From Escherichia virus TH41: a stretch of DNA of 64,000 nt. The notes beneath the pieces were generated by a model. It worked only from the letters and a program-made list of their open reading frames with translations. It was not told where the DNA came from and searched no databases. The stretch is taken from sequence record MT446412.1; one strand, given 5' to 3'. Shown here piece after piece: positions 24,923 through 63,100 of this stretch (the stretch's first letter is position 1; every line of letters begins with the position of its first letter). The translations under genes and the position numbers were made by a program.

Positions 24923-25216
24923 ATGAAAAAGTTATTAATCGCAGCAATTCTTACCGTAGCATCATGTGGTACAGCCCCAGTTACTGCTGGGCTTGATAAA
25001 GACCTTTGTGAGTGGTCCATGACTGCGGACCAGACTGATGTTGAACACCAGATTTATGCTGACATCATGAACATTACTAAACGTGACCACCCAGATATGG
25101 TTAAAGAAGTATCTGACCAACTGGCTTCTGGTGACGTTATGCAGTATAACTATGTTCTGTATTGCGATGCTTCATTTGACAACAGCAAGATTGTTCAATG
25201 GGTTACAGGTGAATAA
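24923..25216 (+). CDS. Putative lipoprotein (97 aa)
   Basis: Signal peptide MKKLLIAAILTVASC with lipobox VASC. Confidence 0.55.
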   Translation: MKKLLIAAILTVASCGTAPVTAGLDKDLCEWSMTADQTDVEHQIYADIMNITKRDHPDMVKEVSDQLASGDVMQYNYVLYCDASFDNSKIVQWVTGE

Positions 25217-25217
25217 A

Positions 25218-25658
25218 ATGATTAACAGAAATTTAGTTATCAAAAAACTTCGTTGTAAAAATCAAAATGCACAAGCATACAGGATGTTTTGGAGCGACGA
25301 ACCCATTCAATACCTGGGTTATTTTCTTGTTGATAGTGATAATAGAATTACGTTTGCTCATAAACTTCTTAACAAAGAATTAAACCATTGGCAAGAACTT
25401 ATTGCGGTCAAGTCTAAATTATTTTCGCGCAATACAATGCACCAATTGGTTTATTTTTTCGCTGACGGTATTCCTGACAAGGTTGAGTTTGATGGGTTTG
25501 AATTTAAAGACATCACCCCTGATAATGAATTGAATGACAGTATTGTTAATATGGGTATCCCGGGTAAGTACATCAAAAACAGTCTTTTGAAACTTCTGGA
25601 AACCCCTGTATATTCAGTTGACGACCAGATTTTTAATGCCTTCATGAAGCGAGATTAG
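25218..25658 (+). CDS. Hypothetical protein (146 aa)
   Basis: ATG preceded by GGTGA; C-terminus DDQIFNAFMKRD shared with next ORF. Confidence 0.5.
   Translation: MINRNLVIKKLRCKNQNAQAYRMFWSDEPIQYLGYFLVDSDNRITFAHKLLNKELNHWQELIAVKSKLFSRNTMHQLVYFFADGIPDKVEFDGFEFKDITPDNELNDSIVNMGIPGKYIKNSLLKLLETPVYSVDDQIFNAFMKRD
25618..25653 (+). repeat. 36-bp direct repeat, copy 1 (TTGACGACCAGATTTTTAATGCCTTCATGAAGCGAG)
   Basis: 35/36 identical to 25979-26014; 3' end of gene 25218..25658. Confidence 0.85.
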
Positions 25659-25659
25659 T

Positions 25660-26019
25660 ATGAGTTATTATAATTTTCTGAATTTTGAACTGGCGAGCAA
25701 TAATGATGGTAATGCTCATTATGAATTTCGTGAGCCACGGTTTAATCAAGCGATTGGTTATATTATCGTCAAAGATGATGTTATCATAAAGGCTCGCTCA
25801 TTTATGGTAATGAATGGACCTTATGAAGATACTCGCGGCTATCCATTTGATAAAAAGAATGTGCGCGATTGTGCAGCATGGATAACCGGAAACCCCGAAA
25901 TTGGGGTCATGATATCTACTGAAGCGAATGACATTCTGGAAGGGGTTTGGGCCAAAGCTCAAGAATCGTCTATTGCTATTGACGACCAGATTTTTAATGC
26001 CTTCATGAAACGAGGTTAA
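25660..26019 (+). CDS. Hypothetical protein (119 aa) flanked by 36-bp direct repeats
   Basis: ORF track; C-terminus DDQIFNAFMKRG. Confidence 0.5.
   Translation: MSYYNFLNFELASNNDGNAHYEFREPRFNQAIGYIIVKDDVIIKARSFMVMNGPYEDTRGYPFDKKNVRDCAAWITGNPEIGVMISTEANDILEGVWAKAQESSIAIDDQIFNAFMKRG
25979..26014 (+). repeat. 36-bp direct repeat, copy 2
   Basis: 35/36 identical to 25618-25653. Confidence 0.85.
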
Positions 26020-26020
26020 T

Positions 26021-26242
26021 ATGTTTGTTTTAACTCAATTTTCTAAAGCAACATATAGCTACTCTTGTCAATGGGAAGTCTTCATTGATACACCGTCTCC
26101 CAAGTATGGAGTTTTCGGACGAGTAACTACACAAGCTTATGTTGCGCGACCAACCAAACGTCAGATTCGTAAGCTTAAAAAGGCGCATCGCCAACTGATT
26201 AAAAGAAGGGAACAATATGAGTGCAATGTGTACGGGCTCTAA
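26021..26242 (+). CDS. Hypothetical basic protein (73 aa)
   Basis: ORF track. Confidence 0.45.
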   Translation: MFVLTQFSKATYSYSCQWEVFIDTPSPKYGVFGRVTTQAYVARPTKRQIRKLKKAHRQLIKRREQYECNVYGL

Positions 26243-32476: not shown

Positions 32477-33223
32477 ATGACTTTATCAAAAACCAAAACG
32501 TTGAAAGTTAAACGTCGTCTGGAACACACTCAAGCTTCCGCTAAACGCCGCGGTAAAGACTTTAACCTGGATTTTGATTATCTGGTTAATATTCTTGACC
32601 AAAAAGTTTGTGCTTATTCTGGTGAGACATTTAATAACTCTATTGAAGGTGAGAAGTTATCATTAGAGCGTTTTAACAATGATATTGGTTATATCAAGGG
32701 TAATGTTATTCCTGTTAAAAAGAAATACAATACCATGCGTTCTGATTGGTCCTTGGATGAGCTTAAACAACGTCGCGATGATGTTGCTGTAAAAATTGCT
32801 CGCCCCTCTGCCAAGAAGATTGAAAAGTTAAATCTGACTTCAGAGAAATGGGAACAGATTAAAAAGTCATATACTCATATCAAGAACATCCAGCACAAAC
32901 GTGATAATCGCGTTAAGCATTATGCTCAAATGAGTAAATCAGAGCAGTCCAAAGAAAACCAATTAAAAATGGTTGCTCTGAAGGCTCGCATTGATGGTTC
33001 CCGTGTTGCGGAAGGACATGAGCTTACTAAATTGAATGTCCTGCTCAAAGGTAATGACTGGAAAGTTACCAAGAAATTAACTGATGCTGAAACGCTTTTT
33101 GATTGCTATGATAAAATCATTCAAGGTCTTGAGCGTTTTGAGAAGATTGGTTTTATTGGTAAATTAAAACTGAAACGTGGTCTGCCTTTGAACGCGTCAA
33201 TTTTTAAACTGATTAGAGGTTAA
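32477..33223 (+). CDS. Hypothetical basic protein (248 aa); position corresponds to T4 srd
   Basis: ORF track; synteny only. Confidence 0.55.
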   Translation: MTLSKTKTLKVKRRLEHTQASAKRRGKDFNLDFDYLVNILDQKVCAYSGETFNNSIEGEKLSLERFNNDIGYIKGNVIPVKKKYNTMRSDWSLDELKQRRDDVAVKIARPSAKKIEKLNLTSEKWEQIKKSYTHIKNIQHKRDNRVKHYAQMSKSEQSKENQLKMVALKARIDGSRVAEGHELTKLNVLLKGNDWKVTKKLTDAETLFDCYDKIIQGLERFEKIGFIGKLKLKRGLPLNASIFKLIRG

Positions 33224-33227
33224 TGTG

Positions 33228-33524
33228 ATGTACTACGCATATGTGCTGGTTCACAAAGATAAAGATGGTTTTGAACGCCCATTGGAGTATGATGGAAAGG
33301 TTACCTTATACACCACAAAACCGGGCGCAGAGTATGAACTTGCCAACTATTTATATACTACAAACCGCTATTTACGCATGGGACGTATTGAAACACGGTA
33401 TACTCCCAGAAAATGGTGGTTTGATAAGCGGGAAACAAAAACTGTTTTTCCTACTGAAGAACACGCACGAGAATTGAAATTAGTTTTAGATACTTTATAT
33501 GTTAAGCGAGTAAAATTGGCATGA
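33228..33524 (+). CDS. Hypothetical protein (98 aa)
   Basis: ATG preceded by GAGG; track start 33225 is GTG. Confidence 0.45.
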   Translation: MYYAYVLVHKDKDGFERPLEYDGKVTLYTTKPGAEYELANYLYTTNRYLRMGRIETRYTPRKWWFDKRETKTVFPTEEHARELKLVLDTLYVKRVKLA

Positions 33525-34849
33525 TTAAATTTGAAGACTTGAACACAGGACAAAAAGAAGCTTTTGATTATATCACTGAAGCTATTCAGCGACGTTCAGG
33601 GGAATGTATCACTCTGAATGGTCCAGCTGGTACAGGTAAGACCACTCTGACAAAATTTGTCATTGACCATCTAGTGCGTAATGGAGTTATGGGAATTGTG
33701 CTTGCTGCGCCAACTCACCAGGCGAAAAAAGTTTTATCTAAATTGTCTGGTCAAACCGCGAATACAATCCATAGTATCCTGAAGATTAACCCGACCACAT
33801 ATGAAGACCAAAACGTTTTTGAACAACGCGAAATGCCTGACATGTCAAAATGCAATGTTCTGGTTTGTGATGAAGCAAGTATGTATGACGGGTCTCTGTT
33901 TAAGATTATTCTTAACTCTGTTCCTGAATGGTGTACTATTCTTGGGATTGGTGATATGCACCAGCTGCAGCCAGTTGACCCAGGAAGCACACAACAAAAG
34001 ATAAGCCCATTCTTTACGCATCCTAAGTTCAAACAGATTCATCTGACTGAGGTCATGCGAAGCAATGCTCCTATCATTGAAGTGGCGACAGAAATTCGTA
34101 ATGGTGGTTGGTTCCGTGACTGTATGTATGATGGTCATGGTGTACAGGGTTTCACCTCACAAACCGCTTTAAAGGATTTCATGATAAACTATTTCAGTAT
34201 TGTAAAAGATGCTGATATGTTGATGGAAAACAGGATGTATGCGTACACGAATAAATCAGTTGAAAAACTGAACAATATTATTCGTCGCAAGCTCTATGAA
34301 ACGGATAAAGCATTTTTACCGTATGAAGTCCTGGTTATGCAAGAGCCACACATGAAAGAGCTGGAATTTGAAGGCAAGAAATTCAGCGAAACCATTTTTA
34401 ATAATGGTCAGTTGGTTCGCATCAAGGATTGCAAATACACTTCCACCATTCTCCGTTGTAAAGGCGAATCGCACCAGTTAGTGATTAATTACTGGGACCT
34501 GGAAGTTGAGTCAATTGATGAAGATGAAGAATATCAGGTTGACCGCATTAAAGTTTTACCAGAAGACCAGCAACCAAAATTCCAGGCATATCTGGCTAAA
34601 GTTGCTGACACATACAAACAGATGAAAGCCGCTGGTAAACGTCCGGAGTGGAAAGACTTCTGGAAAGCTCGCCGGACCTTCTTGAAAGTTCGTGCTCTTC
34701 CGGTCAGTACAATTCACAAGGCCCAGGGCGTTTCAGTGGACAAAGCATTCATCTATACTCCATGCATCCATATGGCCGAAGCTTCATTAGCGAGCCAGTT
34801 GGCTTATGTAGGAATCACACGAGCGAGGTACGACGCATATTATGTATAA
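33521..34849 (+). CDS. dda: DNA helicase Dda (SF1)
   Basis: 442 aa; Walker A GPAGTGKTT, blocks AAPTHQAKK, LKINP, FHKAQG, YVGITRAR match T4 Dda. Confidence 0.93.
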   Translation: MIKFEDLNTGQKEAFDYITEAIQRRSGECITLNGPAGTGKTTLTKFVIDHLVRNGVMGIVLAAPTHQAKKVLSKLSGQTANTIHSILKINPTTYEDQNVFEQREMPDMSKCNVLVCDEASMYDGSLFKIILNSVPEWCTILGIGDMHQLQPVDPGSTQQKISPFFTHPKFKQIHLTEVMRSNAPIIEVATEIRNGGWFRDCMYDGHGVQGFTSQTALKDFMINYFSIVKDADMLMENRMYAYTNKSVEKLNNIIRRKLYETDKAFLPYEVLVMQEPHMKELEFEGKKFSETIFNNGQLVRIKDCKYTSTILRCKGESHQLVINYWDLEVESIDEDEEYQVDRIKVLPEDQQPKFQAYLAKVADTYKQMKAAGKRPEWKDFWKARRTFLKVRALPVSTIHKAQGVSVDKAFIYTPCIHMAEASLASQLAYVGITRARYDAYYV

Positions 34850-35087
34850 AGTACATAAAGAAGATTTAGATACTCTTATCTATGGTATTCAGGACGCGGT
34901 TGAATTTTTCGAAGATAATCCGACTATCGTCGTGCAGGGTAATTACGTTTTACTGGAACTGAATCTTATTCGGAAACGTATGGCCGCGATTGAATATTTT
35001 AACAATGAAGAGCCAGGGATTTTTATCTCCGACTATGTTGCTGGTGAAATTCAGAAATTAAAAGAGATGTGCGATGGTTGCTGGTGA
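34842..35087 (+). CDS. Hypothetical protein (81 aa); 3' end lies in 40-bp tandem duplication
   Basis: ORF track. Confidence 0.45.
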   Translation: MYKVHKEDLDTLIYGIQDAVEFFEDNPTIVVQGNYVLLELNLIRKRMAAIEYFNNEEPGIFISDYVAGEIQKLKEMCDGCW

Positions 35088-35116
35088 AATTCAAAAATTA
35101 AAAGAGATGTGCGATG
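35037..35116 (+). repeat. Tandem duplication, 2 x 40 bp (one mismatch) spanning the dexA start
   Basis: Units 35037-35076 and 35077-35116; unit 2 ends with the dexA ATG. Confidence 0.9.
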
Positions 35117-35797
35117 ATTGATGCTATTATTGACTTTGAAACTCTGGGAAACGGCTCGAAGGGAGCCGTTATTGACCTGGCTCTGATTACATTCGAATCT
35201 GACCCTGCTATTGTGGAATCATTCGAAACCCTGGTTAATCGCGGCAAACGTATCAAGTTTAGCCTTGAATACCAAAAAGGTAAGCGTCTGTTCGATACAA
35301 CAACCATGAGTTGGTGGAAAAAGCAATCAGCAGAAGCCCGTGTTAACTTGGCTCCTTCTGCGCAAGATGTTGATACTCTGACCGGTATCCAACAGGCAAT
35401 TGATTATCTGAATGGTAATGGAATTAACAAATACGAAAGCCTTATGTGGTGTCGTGGAATGTCTTTTGACTTCCCGTTGTTTGTTGACCTTATCCGTGAC
35501 CTACAGCGCAATGAGGGTATTCCCGAGCGTGAATTGAATACATATGGCCTGGAGCCGGTTGTATTCTGGAACCAGCGAGATATCAGGACAGCAATCGAAG
35601 CCCTATCACTCGTCCGTAAGATGTGTGAAACTCCATTACCAAAGGGGGCTTTAGATGGATTTGTGGCGCATGATTCGGTGCATGACTGCGCGAAAGATAT
35701 TTTGATGCTTAAGTATGCCCAGCGCTATGCTCTTGGTTTGGATGAAGTTCCTTCCGAAGAAGATGCAGACCCGTTATCTTTACCGAAAAAACGATAA
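35114..35797 (+). CDS. dexA: Exonuclease A (DexA, DEDD 3'-5' exonuclease)
   Basis: 227 aa (same as T4 DexA); N-terminal IDFETLG motif. Confidence 0.85.
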   Translation: MIDAIIDFETLGNGSKGAVIDLALITFESDPAIVESFETLVNRGKRIKFSLEYQKGKRLFDTTTMSWWKKQSAEARVNLAPSAQDVDTLTGIQQAIDYLNGNGINKYESLMWCRGMSFDFPLFVDLIRDLQRNEGIPERELNTYGLEPVVFWNQRDIRTAIEALSLVRKMCETPLPKGALDGFVAHDSVHDCAKDILMLKYAQRYALGLDEVPSEEDADPLSLPKKR

Positions 35798-35803
35798 AAA
35801 GTA

Positions 35804-35833
35804 GTGTACAAGGCCAATGGAAAGAGACATAAT
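35804..35833 (+). promoter_or_regulatory. Early promoter GTGTAC-N18-CATAAT
   Basis: Preceded by AAAAAGTA; leader CATCTCATCAACTACTGATGAGGATAACAAA; ATG 35865. Confidence 0.6.
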
Positions 35834-35864
35834 CATCTCATCAACTACTGATGAGGATAACAAA

Positions 35865-36122
35865 ATGATTACTTCTTTTGAAATTGGCCAACAATATGAA
35901 ATGTCTGCTTTTCAAGCTGCTGAAGCAGGTCTGACTGAAGCGTTTGAATGTGCATTTACAAATATTCGTGGTAAAATCTTTACTGTCAATAAAATTGCGG
36001 TATATGATAAAGAAACAGACATGAACAAAGGCATCTACTTGAACGTGTCAAACGCAAAAGGCCGTCGTGAAATTATGGTTGTACAACCTAACCAACTGGC
36101 GATGTTCAATAAGGTTACATAA
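35865..36122 (+). CDS. Hypothetical protein (85 aa)
   Basis: ATG after conserved leader; in frame with track ORF 35817..36122. Confidence 0.5.
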   Translation: MITSFEIGQQYEMSAFQAAEAGLTEAFECAFTNIRGKIFTVNKIAVYDKETDMNKGIYLNVSNAKGRREIMVVQPNQLAMFNKVT

Positions 36123-36877
36123 TGAAACCAGAATTTATTGACTTTGATGTTGTAAGCATGTATGTTCGCCCAATTAAACCATTAAAACTTGAGAAACAAA
36201 ATATGACTATTGAAATTAACAAAACTTATCAACTGATTGAACCTATTATTCAAAACGCAGCTATGGTTTCTGGGTATAATACTCTGACTGATGCTTTAGG
36301 CGAAGGTGAATTTATTGTTGAAACTTTTGTAAAAAGTAACTGGTTTGATAAAGCATATATTTTGCATGCACGTCGCCTTGATACAAATGAAGTAGAAAAA
36401 ATTATGGTTTATGAAGCTGAGATTGAACTCTTCAAAGAAGTTGAAGAAACTCCCATCAAAGTTGGTAAAACCTATCAGCTTATTGAAGATGCCAGTCAGT
36501 TTGGAAAGACTGTTGCAATGCATGCCGGGTGGCGGGTACTGAAAGGTATTTTTGGATTTGCTCCATTTACCGTTAAAACAGTTAAGTACCACAATCACCA
36601 AAGCATCTTTGAATTTACTGCGGTCAATGAATCAGGTGACAATCTTGAAGCTATCCTTTATCCGCGTGAATCTGTACTGCTGGAAGAAGTTAGCGAGCTT
36701 GGCGACCCTATTGACTTGCTATGTAAACCAGTTCAAATCAAACGCCCATTTAACAGTTCCATTTGTGGTTGGGTAACAGACCAGTGGATTGAAGATGGTG
36801 TTGAACTCCTGAACGTTGTTCATTGTGGTAGTTTTACTGTTGTACCACGTTCCATGGTTGTTGAAATTTTTAATTAA
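36122..36877 (+). CDS. Hypothetical protein (251 aa), C-terminal domain paralogous to next ORF
   Basis: C-terminus GWVTDQWIEDGVELLNVVHCGSFTVVPRSMVVE vs GYITDQWVEEGVKLYNIVFLGTFKVVPESFIVE. Confidence 0.55.
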   Translation: MKPEFIDFDVVSMYVRPIKPLKLEKQNMTIEINKTYQLIEPIIQNAAMVSGYNTLTDALGEGEFIVETFVKSNWFDKAYILHARRLDTNEVEKIMVYEAEIELFKEVEETPIKVGKTYQLIEDASQFGKTVAMHAGWRVLKGIFGFAPFTVKTVKYHNHQSIFEFTAVNESGDNLEAILYPRESVLLEEVSELGDPIDLLCKPVQIKRPFNSSICGWVTDQWIEDGVELLNVVHCGSFTVVPRSMVVEIFN

Positions 36878-60174: not shown

Positions 60175-63100
60175 TTATTCAATCCATTCAAACTTAACGG
60201 ATTTAGTGGTCGGGTCTGGGATGATACGCACGTTACCGATACGCAACCAATCAAGAATGGTTAAGTTCCCCATCGTTGTGTTGTCAGCCGGTAATGCGCC
60301 AACATCCTCTGCAGACGGAGGGTTATCCGCGGTATAAACCATTGCGAAAGTCGTCCATGCTGATTTATTTTTCTGCCATGTACGAGTATAACGAATAGTA
60401 CCACCGTTCAATCCAGTTGGATAACAAACCCAATCTTGATAGCACGAATCCAGCGTATTACCAAACTGAGTCAATGTACCAGGATATTTAATTTGTTTAT
60501 CACGAACTGAATAGTCAAACCAGGTTCCGCGCAGTTTCTGTCCGGAGCTACCTAATACTTCATCACCGAGTGTACCATCATCAGTACGATAACGAATAGC
60601 GGGCGAGGCAAAAGTTCCGTTTTCAGTTAACCAACCAGAAGCATTCCAAACTTCATCAGTTACCCCAGCAGGTTTAGTTTGAACCGTATCAATGTTTACT
60701 TGACGTTTTAACTTCATTGTCCAATAACCAGGGAACTGGCTATAAGTCGGTTCATCATTGATATCGACAGACCAGAAACCAACAGTATCCGCAGTCGGAG
60801 CTTGTGCGATAAGACTTGGTTTCGTACCGAATACACGGACCGGAGCATTCACACGGAGCACACCAGACATTGTATCACCGGCTTGGTTAACAAAGTTTCT
60901 ATCTACAATCTCAACAGCGTTTTTCTCGGTCAGGACTTTAAATGCGCCGCCACCATTTGCTATGATATTGCCAGCATCAAGAGTTTTAAGCACTAAATTC
61001 TGCGAGTTATCACCCAGAGCCAGAGTTGCACCAGAAGCTTCACCCGTTGTGGTTGCGATAGTACGACCATTTAGAACGTAATTATTTTTGGCTTGAACAT
61101 CATTTCCGGCGCTAAGGTTGTTCAATACAGCAGCATTACCCGAGGCGGTGTTTAATGTCAATACGTTAGTCGTATCGCCAATAGTCATTGTCGTTCCGGT
61201 GGAAGGAGCGGTGATTTTCCACTTGTTAGTTCCGTTAACAACATTCACAGTTCCGAACGTCGAAGTGCCAGCCGTTACATCAGTAAACACTGCAGTGCTC
61301 GTCGATACAACCGGAGCAGATATATTTGTCTGTTTAGTAAGAGTTAACACACCTTCAACAGTCTGAGCAATATCACGACGAATAAACTGGGTCGAATCAA
61401 GGTTATCCAGTTTTTCAGCATTAACAGCCATCGCATTTATCGGTAAGAAGTTTTGCAATACGCGGTTTAATTCGTAAGGCGAAACTGCATAACCAGATTT
61501 TGAATAGCTAACCAGTTTACTTGGGTCCGGAGTATACACACCATTTGCATATGTAAATCCTGCACCAGTCGTTGTAGTTGCGGCCGAAGTAGCTGTACCA
61601 GAAGATAAACGAACAAATCCACGTAGGGTTTCAGATGCTTCCCAGGTTGTTTCCGTTTGGGCAATATATTTCAGCGCCGACGGACTGATGGCCAAGACTT
61701 TTGATGTGCCTGCTGTTGCTTCTGCGTTTGTCGCGATGCGAACAATACCTTCGGCATTTTCAGTGGCTTTTTTCGACATCAATTTAAGCGGAGTAACGAT
61801 TGTTTTATCGTCAGTGCCGGTATTGACTTCACCCTGAGTTGCTAATCTTGCCGTACCACGTTGAGTCTCATTTGCTTCAAGAATATTCAGGCTATAATGG
61901 TCCCAGAGCGTCCCTGTTTCTACTAAACCACTTAATGCATTAACAGAAGTGCGAGCAGTATTATTAAATCTAGTTTTAATTTTTAATGGAGTTGAGATAC
62001 GAGTATCATCAGTTCCAGTATCAAATTCTGATTGCGTAGCAATCTCGGCTATGCCGGTTAACGTTTCTGATGCTTTACGGTCATTTAACGTTTTAGGAGT
62101 CACAGCTCTGGTATAATCAGTTCCTGCATCTGTTTCCACCTGAGTAGCAATCTCGATTAAACCGATACGGGAATCAAGAGCAGTTTTGCGATGCAACATT
62201 TCTGGAGTAACGACTGCGTTTGCCCATCCAGATTGAGAAGTACCAGCAATTACTTCACTTTCAACCGCAAGAATAACCGCACCTTGTTGGGTGTAAGTAG
62301 CTTTATACTGGTCAAGAGCTTTCGGAGAAACAACCAGATTAACCGTATTTTTATTATAAACGTTTGTACCATTTAATTCACGCGAAGCAGCAGGAGTTGT
62401 ACCGGTTGTTGAAACGTAAGTTACAATACCAGATAGCGATTCTGAGCCCTGGCGCGCTTGCAGTTTCTTCGGAGTGATAATTGTGGTATCATCTACACCT
62501 GCATCAGTTTCTTGCTGTGTGGCGAGTTCTGCGAGCCCACGTCTCGTTTCTGTTGCCGTACGTTCATTGAGTTTTTTCGGAGAAATAATTACATCATCAA
62601 CAAATGCAAAATCACTGTTCTGATTTACTTGAGCAGTCGTTGCGATTCTGGCAATACCTCGTTGGTTCTCTTTAGCAACACGGTTGGCCAAAGTCTGAGG
62701 GGTAATTGCAAGTTCTTTCTCTGGGTTATTTTCATGGTCAACGTTTGCCTGAGTCTGGTTTGCCAGAGCAATAACACCAAGACGTGCGCGCGTGGAATCA
62801 TTTAATGAGTCAACTCGTTCAACAGTCGGAACGTTTTGAGCAACAACCCAATAACTTGTTCCAGACACTGTATCTTCTGCATATGATAATTCAATAACCG
62901 GAGTATAACTGATGTTGCCATTAAAGGTCAATGAATCAACCAACACCCAAGTTGTATCCGGTGGATACTCGGAACGTTTAGGGAATTGTAGCAATTTAAT
63001 GTCAGATGCAATCTTATCGCCAACAGCAGCTCTTATATTAACAGTCTGCGATTTACGGAGATAGTTCAATGCAATTTTAACAATATCACCTTGTAAAACA

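Follow-up and report, generated by a model that had tools for sequence, protein, structure and literature searches.

Results

Gene content and a tandem repeat at the dexA junction

The window analysed here is a stretch of 64,000 nucleotides from Escherichia virus TH41 (MT446412.1), and in the part of it considered below the gene order is dda, a small ORF of 81 codons, dexA, a second small ORF and a gene for a MotB-domain protein. At the boundary between the first small gene and dexA, two 40-bp units abut head to tail (Table 1). The copies are identical at 39 of 40 positions; unit 1 reads GTTGCTGGTGAAATTCAGAAATTAAAAGAGATGTGCGATG, and the sole difference lies at unit position 18, which is G in unit 1 (35054) and A in unit 2 (35094). 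A preliminary description of this DNA had reported two adjacent 40-bp units that differ at one base, the second ending on the dexA ATG, and both observations were confirmed: Tandem Repeats Finder returned the array at 35037-35120 with a period of 40, 2.1 copies, 95% matches and a score of 154, and the final base of unit 2 is the G of the dexA start codon at 35114-35116. The array is the top-scoring tandem repeat of the whole window, with the runner-up scoring 55, and a search of the window allowing up to 3 mismatches found no copy of the unit beyond these two (0.00 expected, from 100 shuffles). A T precedes unit 1 where the unit ends in G, and an A follows unit 2 where the unit begins with G; because these flanking bases extend the repeat in neither direction, the boundaries of the array are uniquely defined. 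Microhomology at the duplication junction amounts to 0 nt, the nearest similarity being a TTG that is one mismatched base off.

Table 1. Coordinates of genes and features around the duplicated dexA junction (window numbering)
Feature	Position	Strand	Description
dda helicase, upstream neighbour	33521..34849	+	
Small gene between dda and dexA	34842..35087	+	81 aa, ending ...MCDGCW; 79 aa, ending ...MCDD, in single-copy relatives
Unit 1	35037..35076	+	codes for the last residues, VAGEIQKLKEMCD, of the upstream small protein; holds a silent copy of the dexA start region, with its ATG at 35074
Predicted mini-ORF	35074..35121	+	15 codons, MVAGEIQKLKEMCDD and stop; starts at the duplicated dexA ATG
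Unit 2	35077..35116	+	first 11 nt form the new small-protein tail G-C-W-stop; the remainder is the working dexA start region
New non-coding spacer, small-gene stop to dexA ATG	35088..35113	+	26 nt, made by the duplication
dexA (exonuclease A)	35114..35797	+	227 aa; Pfam Rv2179c-like exonuclease domain; PHROG 'exonuclease'

The small gene reads through all of unit 1 and 8 nt of unit 2 before reaching a TGA at 35085-35087, and its product ends in ...KEMCDGCW. A unit of 40 bp shifts the reading frame, its length not being divisible by 3, so that in unit 2 the ORF continues with GGT TGC TGG and ends at TGA. The earlier claim that an 81-aa ORF runs through unit 1 and acquires a changed C-terminus, ...CDGCW in place of ...CDD, was therefore correct; the change consists of the replacement of the last residue (D79G) and the addition of two residues, C and W. 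The resulting CDGC motif contains the only two cysteines of the protein, arranged as a CxxC pair. The tail beyond KEM differs between genera.

The small ORF is a real gene, on the grounds of its conserved position in Karamvirus, where a homologue of about 32% identity likewise lies upstream of dexA, and of its low pN/pS (0.08-0.19 within the genus), which indicates purifying selection. Its product falls in phrog_5263 (E = 3.8e-32) and carries the precomputed Pfam annotation PF26837, Phage_T4_Y00H_G. A local Pfam hmmscan of the 81-aa protein returned no family; PF26837 may be newer than the local copy of Pfam and so have been missed by our own scan. Some GenBank records label the ORF 'similar to T4 DexA.2'. 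At E <= 1e-3, the tblastn matches listed for the small protein came from Gaprivervirus, Karamvirus-like phages and some phages of Klebsiella, Cronobacter, Aeromonas and Erwinia, and none of the listed records was T4-type.

The dexA gene is intact. Its length does not differ between duplicated and single-copy genomes, and it is under strong purifying selection (pN/pS 0.03-0.08), so that in the carriers of the duplication both neighbouring genes are full-length and under purifying selection. The native start region of dexA is also retained, because the duplicated segment includes the 37 nt upstream of its ATG.

The duplicated junction is shared by about one third of related phages

Megablast placed the region in the T4-like genus Gaprivervirus, among SP18, VR7, VR20 and their relatives. 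The nearest record is about 95% identical to the window over 22 kb and none is closer, which identifies the window as a separate isolate. Besides the window, 9 of 27 distinct GenBank Gaprivervirus genomes, deposited by several laboratories and sampled on several continents, carry the duplicated junction: TH22, TH55, TH54 and TH57 from sewage in the USA, UPEC07 and UPEC01 from Uganda, MN01 from Bangladesh, VR20 from Lithuania, and ECML-359. Comparison with related phage genomes, which the preliminary description had proposed as a check, shows the duplication to be shared: adding the window and one JGI contig to the 27 distinct GenBank genomes gives a census of 29, of which 10 are carriers.

The same allele is found outside the named isolates. 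At least seven metagenome or raw-run assemblies carry the duplication, among them ENA metagenomes (ERZ27239197, ERZ28618124, ERZ27274741 and ERZ27235397) and Logan assemblies of raw runs (SRR25011057, SRR11772948 and SRR29999943). In six of the seven, the 227-aa dexA begins 27 nt past the stop of the 81-aa ORF, and the contig of the seventh (L040, ERZ27239197, 679 nt) ends before dexA can be called. The exact 81-aa product is present in a collection of 15 billion proteins, in which it is indexed in 31 blocks, compared with 41 for the matching 79-aa product; the loci L039-L050 were fetched by exact protein identity, and any non-synonymous changes in the new tail would therefore escape notice among them. 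A protein from a third-party metagenome-assembled genome, DAH51000.1, is likewise 81 aa long and ends in ...CDGCW. Scanning IMG/VR with the junction pattern recovered VR20, VR25 and VR26 only, all already known, and the same scan of JGI metagenomes gave one true Gaprivervirus contig, which is single-copy, and seven chance matches. The duplication is an old variant common to approximately one third of the related SP18/VR7-like (Gaprivervirus) phages worldwide.

The ancestral junction is an overlap

Between the same anchors, the junction measures 93 nt in single-copy genomes and 133 nt in duplicated ones. The 93-nt form is present in 18 of the 27 distinct GenBank relatives, in the JGI contig and in the single-copy ENA and Logan contigs that were examined. 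In every single-copy genome examined, the small ORF encodes 79 aa ending in ...KEMCDD, and its TGA overlaps the dexA ATG (ATGATTGA), as is also evident from the annotated coordinates in single-copy relatives (small ORF 1643-1882, dexA 1875-2558). These genomes therefore have an 8-nt overlap at the site where the window has a 26-nt spacer, with the stop at 35085-35087 and the ATG at 35114 neither overlapping nor abutting. In the Karamvirus outgroup myPSH1140, the homologous ORF ends ...KEMT followed by a stop codon and overlaps dexA as ATGA. Since both the single-copy relatives and the outgroup have overlapping genes, the overlap is ancestral and the duplication derived. The ...CDD terminus that had been predicted as ancestral from the TH41 sequence alone is the one encoded by every single-copy relative.

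At its other end, the start of the small gene overlaps the dda stop by 8 nt (ATGTATAA, 34842-34849), with a geometry identical to that of the ancestral overlap on dexA. From this likeness it follows that the small gene originally overlapped its neighbours at both ends.

Haplotypes point to an old, probably single event followed by recombination and probable loss

Every carrier has the same junction, GATG/G, and yet the carriers differ elsewhere in the array: at least seven duplicated haplotypes were distinguished, with 0 to 3 differences between the two units. The haplotype of the window, shared with seven GenBank genomes (type A), has A at position 18 of unit 2, and that of VR20 and UPEC01 (type B) has T at position 36 of unit 2. 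Metagenome haplotypes add C at position 2 and T at position 5 of unit 2, and C at position 9 and T at position 36 of unit 1. The position 2 C and position 5 T occur in unit 2 only. The position 18 A is also found in single-copy alleles (pEC-M719 and one Logan contig), as is the position 36 T (PSD2001, DK-13 and one JGI contig). In one further haplotype from a metagenome, L049, the two units are identical and the background matches the single-copy phage DK-13; this haplotype looks like a fresh duplication, which would fit a recurrent origin.

In a neighbour-joining tree of either 1.8-kb flank, the carriers are not monophyletic. Recombination between co-infecting T4-like phages is frequent, and mosaic flanks are to be expected. 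Because the junction is identical everywhere, we read the scatter of carriers as recombination mosaicism and not as independent origins. The region 33200-36600 of the window is itself a recombination mosaic, in which the left 1.8 kb is nearest to UPEC01 (0.8% divergence) and the right to ECML-359 (1.4%), and the switch of nearest relative falls near the duplicated junction.

These data revise two aspects of the preliminary description, which had seen a recent event of slippage or recombination. At least seven haplotypes, on differing flank backgrounds, do not agree with a recent event, and the samples that contain the carriers span Lithuania, the USA, Uganda and Bangladesh. Simple slippage is not clearly supported either, given that the junction has no microhomology; slippage with a later point change is possible. 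The identical blunt breakpoints would be explained most simply by a single event.

Loss of one unit appears to occur as well. Within +/-400 bp, YenM_P8, EAWsc9 and pEC-M719, which are single-copy, hardly differ from TH22, UPEC07, TH55 and ECML-359, which carry the duplication. The single unit of pEC-M719 retains the A at position 18 that otherwise marks unit 2, as a crossover between units upstream of position 18 would leave it, and those of YenM_P8 and EAWsc9 retain G, which fits either a crossover downstream of position 18 or the ancestral state. These near-identical pairs support occasional collapse of the array to a single copy, which is the presumed direction of change.

A predicted mini-ORF restores the ancestral stop/start geometry

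The duplicated ATG in unit 1 opens a predicted mini-ORF (Table 1) with the same 37 nt upstream as dexA itself, and its TGA overlaps the true dexA ATG exactly as the ancestral stop did. Positions 35074-35121 have the form expected of a uORF or leader peptide acting on dexA, in that the short ORF is preceded by start signals and ends at the downstream start codon. The mini-ORF is presumably translated. The predicted peptide varies among carriers (V2A and A3V, in L039, L040, L044 and L048), and this variation suggests that it has no function of its own.

A structured RNA or regulatory element within the repeat was considered and rejected. RNA folding of the duplicated and single-copy junctions was no better than that of shuffled sequences (z = 0.12, -0.58 and 1.11), no promoter-like or terminator-like site was found within 35037-35116, and the repeat had no match in Rfam, the best score being that of isrF, at 12.9 bits (E = 0.62) where the gathering score is 40.

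Discussion

A probably near-neutral structural polymorphism

The interpretation that we consider likely, with good though not complete confidence, is that the duplicated junction is a nearly neutral, old structural polymorphism of single origin, which recombines through the genus and sometimes collapses. In the starting state, the last codons of the 79-aa gene would have been ...TGC GAT GAT TGA, overlapping the dexA ATG. A single event of illegitimate recombination or replication would then have duplicated the 40 bp ending at that ATG, throwing the small gene out of frame in unit 2, where it would have stopped after three codons and exchanged the tail ...CDD for ...CDGCW. The 8-nt overlap would have become a 26-nt spacer, with the dexA start region preserved. 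Ribosomes terminating at 35087 could restart at 35074 or at 35114, and coupling may then persist by being relayed from the small gene to the mini-ORF and from there to dexA. Homologous recombination between co-infecting phages would have spread the allele to other backgrounds, on which it gained point variants of its own, and recombination between the units would at times have returned the array to one copy. The duplication is probably nearly harmless; it can be tolerated because the only effect on the small protein is an ending of ...CDGCW instead of ...CDD, and because the region upstream of the dexA start is retained in full.

For a neutral allele subject to one-way loss, a worldwide frequency of about one third over many backgrounds is somewhat surprising, and it leaves room for weak positive or balancing selection. 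The leading alternative is accordingly that selection keeps the duplication through changed expression or function, either because the spacer and the 15-codon uORF retune DexA synthesis or because of the new C-terminal C-x-x-C (CDGC). The frequency itself (10 of 29 genomes, and 31 against 41 blocks in the protein collection) speaks for selection, as do the presence of the allele on several backgrounds, the exactness with which the mini-ORF rebuilds the ancestral stop/ATG overlap, and the CxxC pair formed by the only two cysteines of the small protein. We nevertheless regard selection as unlikely: single-copy and duplicated alleles coexist in near-identical haplotypes, and the products of collapse persist; the mini-ORF peptide is not conserved (V2A, A3V); the tail of the small protein beyond KEM varies between genera; and dexA is dispensable in T4. 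In its fullest form, such an account would make the duplication a positively selected allele that resets DexA relative to the upstream early protein, or that supplies a functional CxxC, with balancing selection across hosts and collapse acting as a one-way switch, and to this we give a slightly lower probability still.

Recurrence at a hotspot, in which the same 40-bp duplication arises repeatedly by slippage or by nuclease- or topoisomerase-directed illegitimate recombination, would account for the scattering of carriers over the flank trees, for the identical units of L049 on a DK-13-like background and for the imperfect ATG/TTG similarity near both breakpoints. The junction itself makes this improbable, since it has 0 nt of microhomology, and slippage mediated by TTG would predict GATGATTG and slippage mediated by ATG a 39-bp unit, whereas all carriers have GATGG. 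Variant breakpoints were seen in no genome examined, and the mosaic flanks are those expected from the known high recombination of T4-like phages.

The two last explanations have hardly any probability left. The scar of a mobile cassette, such as a homing-endonuclease gene, inserted with a flanking duplication and later deleted, has a possible parallel elsewhere in the window, where a 119-aa ORF whose presence varies among relatives is bounded by a 45-nt repeated gene junction, but no relative has an insert between the units, all matching records spanning 708, 711 or 751 nt, and deletion between flanking repeats would restore one copy and not two abutting ones. A sequencing or assembly artefact of this genome, as the preliminary description had allowed, has in its favour nothing more than the general proneness of short tandem repeats to mis-assembly, and is contradicted by the same allele and junction in other GenBank phages, seven of which share even the G/A difference between units, and by other variants in two further GenBank genomes and several metagenome and Logan assemblies made with different assemblers. 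The odd repeat being no assembly error, the annotation of the genome, with its 81-aa ORF and intact dexA, can stand.

Comparison with other repeats and junctions in T4-like phages

Spontaneous tandem duplications are classical in T4, notably in the rII region, and short indel polymorphisms are known among T4-like genomes. As a tandem duplication in a T4-type early region, the event described here is of an ordinary kind. Like the rII-type duplications, it is arranged head to tail, is attributable to illegitimate recombination, can be lost when its copies recombine, and lies in an early region that is dispensable in T4. Unlike them, it measures 40 bp and not kilobases, is stable enough to have spread and diverged throughout a genus, and sits exactly on a stop/start overlap with both genes surviving.

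The ancestral arrangement belongs with the coupled overlapping gene pairs of the ATGA and ATGnnTGA types, which are represented here by ATGATTGA in single-copy relatives, ATGA in Karamvirus and the dda/small-gene overlap ATGTATAA in the window. The duplicated junction departs from this pattern in having a 26-nt spacer, so that any coupling must pass via the 15-codon mini-ORF.

Promoter-early stem-loop (PeSL) repeats reportedly mediate modular shuffling in T4-type genomes. The dexA-junction repeat resembles them as a short repeat at a gene boundary in the plastic early regions of T4-like phages, and differs in having no promoter-like site or stem-loop and in that its copies abut with nothing between them.

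A bypass like that of T4 gene 60 was also considered: both cases concern an early gene of the T4 family in which a segment of 40-50 nt could in principle be skipped between identical codons. In the window, the stop comes three codons after the duplicated GAT and no take-off hairpin is predicted. The comparison was dropped, as the defining features are absent and skipping would merely turn CDGCW into CDD.

Among the titles and abstracts listed for Gaprivervirus, VR20, VR7 and duplication, overlap or coupling in T4-like phages, none describes the variant, and public records annotate the duplicated allele without comment (e.g. VR20_014). The junction is a natural example of a small, out-of-frame tandem duplication that separates overlapping coupled genes and damages neither, and of a new intergenic spacer, created by duplication, that has endured and been passed on by recombination within a phage genus. 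The difference between the 93-nt and 133-nt junctions could serve as a PCR-length marker for recombination among Gaprivervirus isolates.

Other repeats and annotation of the window

A second repeated gene junction is formed by a 45-nt direct repeat at 25618-25662 and 25979-26023, the copies of which are 93% identical and 361 nt apart. It encodes the last 13 codons (..DDQIFNAFMKR[D/G] and stop) of the ORFs 25083-25658 and 25660-26019, together with the ATG of the next gene. These two ORFs are adjacent and distantly similar, and their DNA identity falls sharply upstream of the repeat. At this site, the matches in VR26 and the more distant phages E33, C6 and AnYang are approximately 365-370 bp shorter, and those in MN01, YenM_P8, EAWsc9, pEC-M719 and ECML-359 approximately 190 bp shorter; from these length differences, a cassette bounded by junction repeats seems to have been gained or lost. 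Near the end of the window (62003-62539), three diverged copies of a 54-nt unit, with 61-72% identity to the first and spacings of 108 and 375 nt, are probably an internal repeat of a protein-coding gene.

Downstream of dexA, the ORF at 35817-36122 is annotated in relatives with two different starts, which give products of either 101 or 85 aa. Alignment to the PHROG profile begins at residue 17 of the longer product, and for this reason the 85-aa form, with its start near 35865, may be the genuine one.
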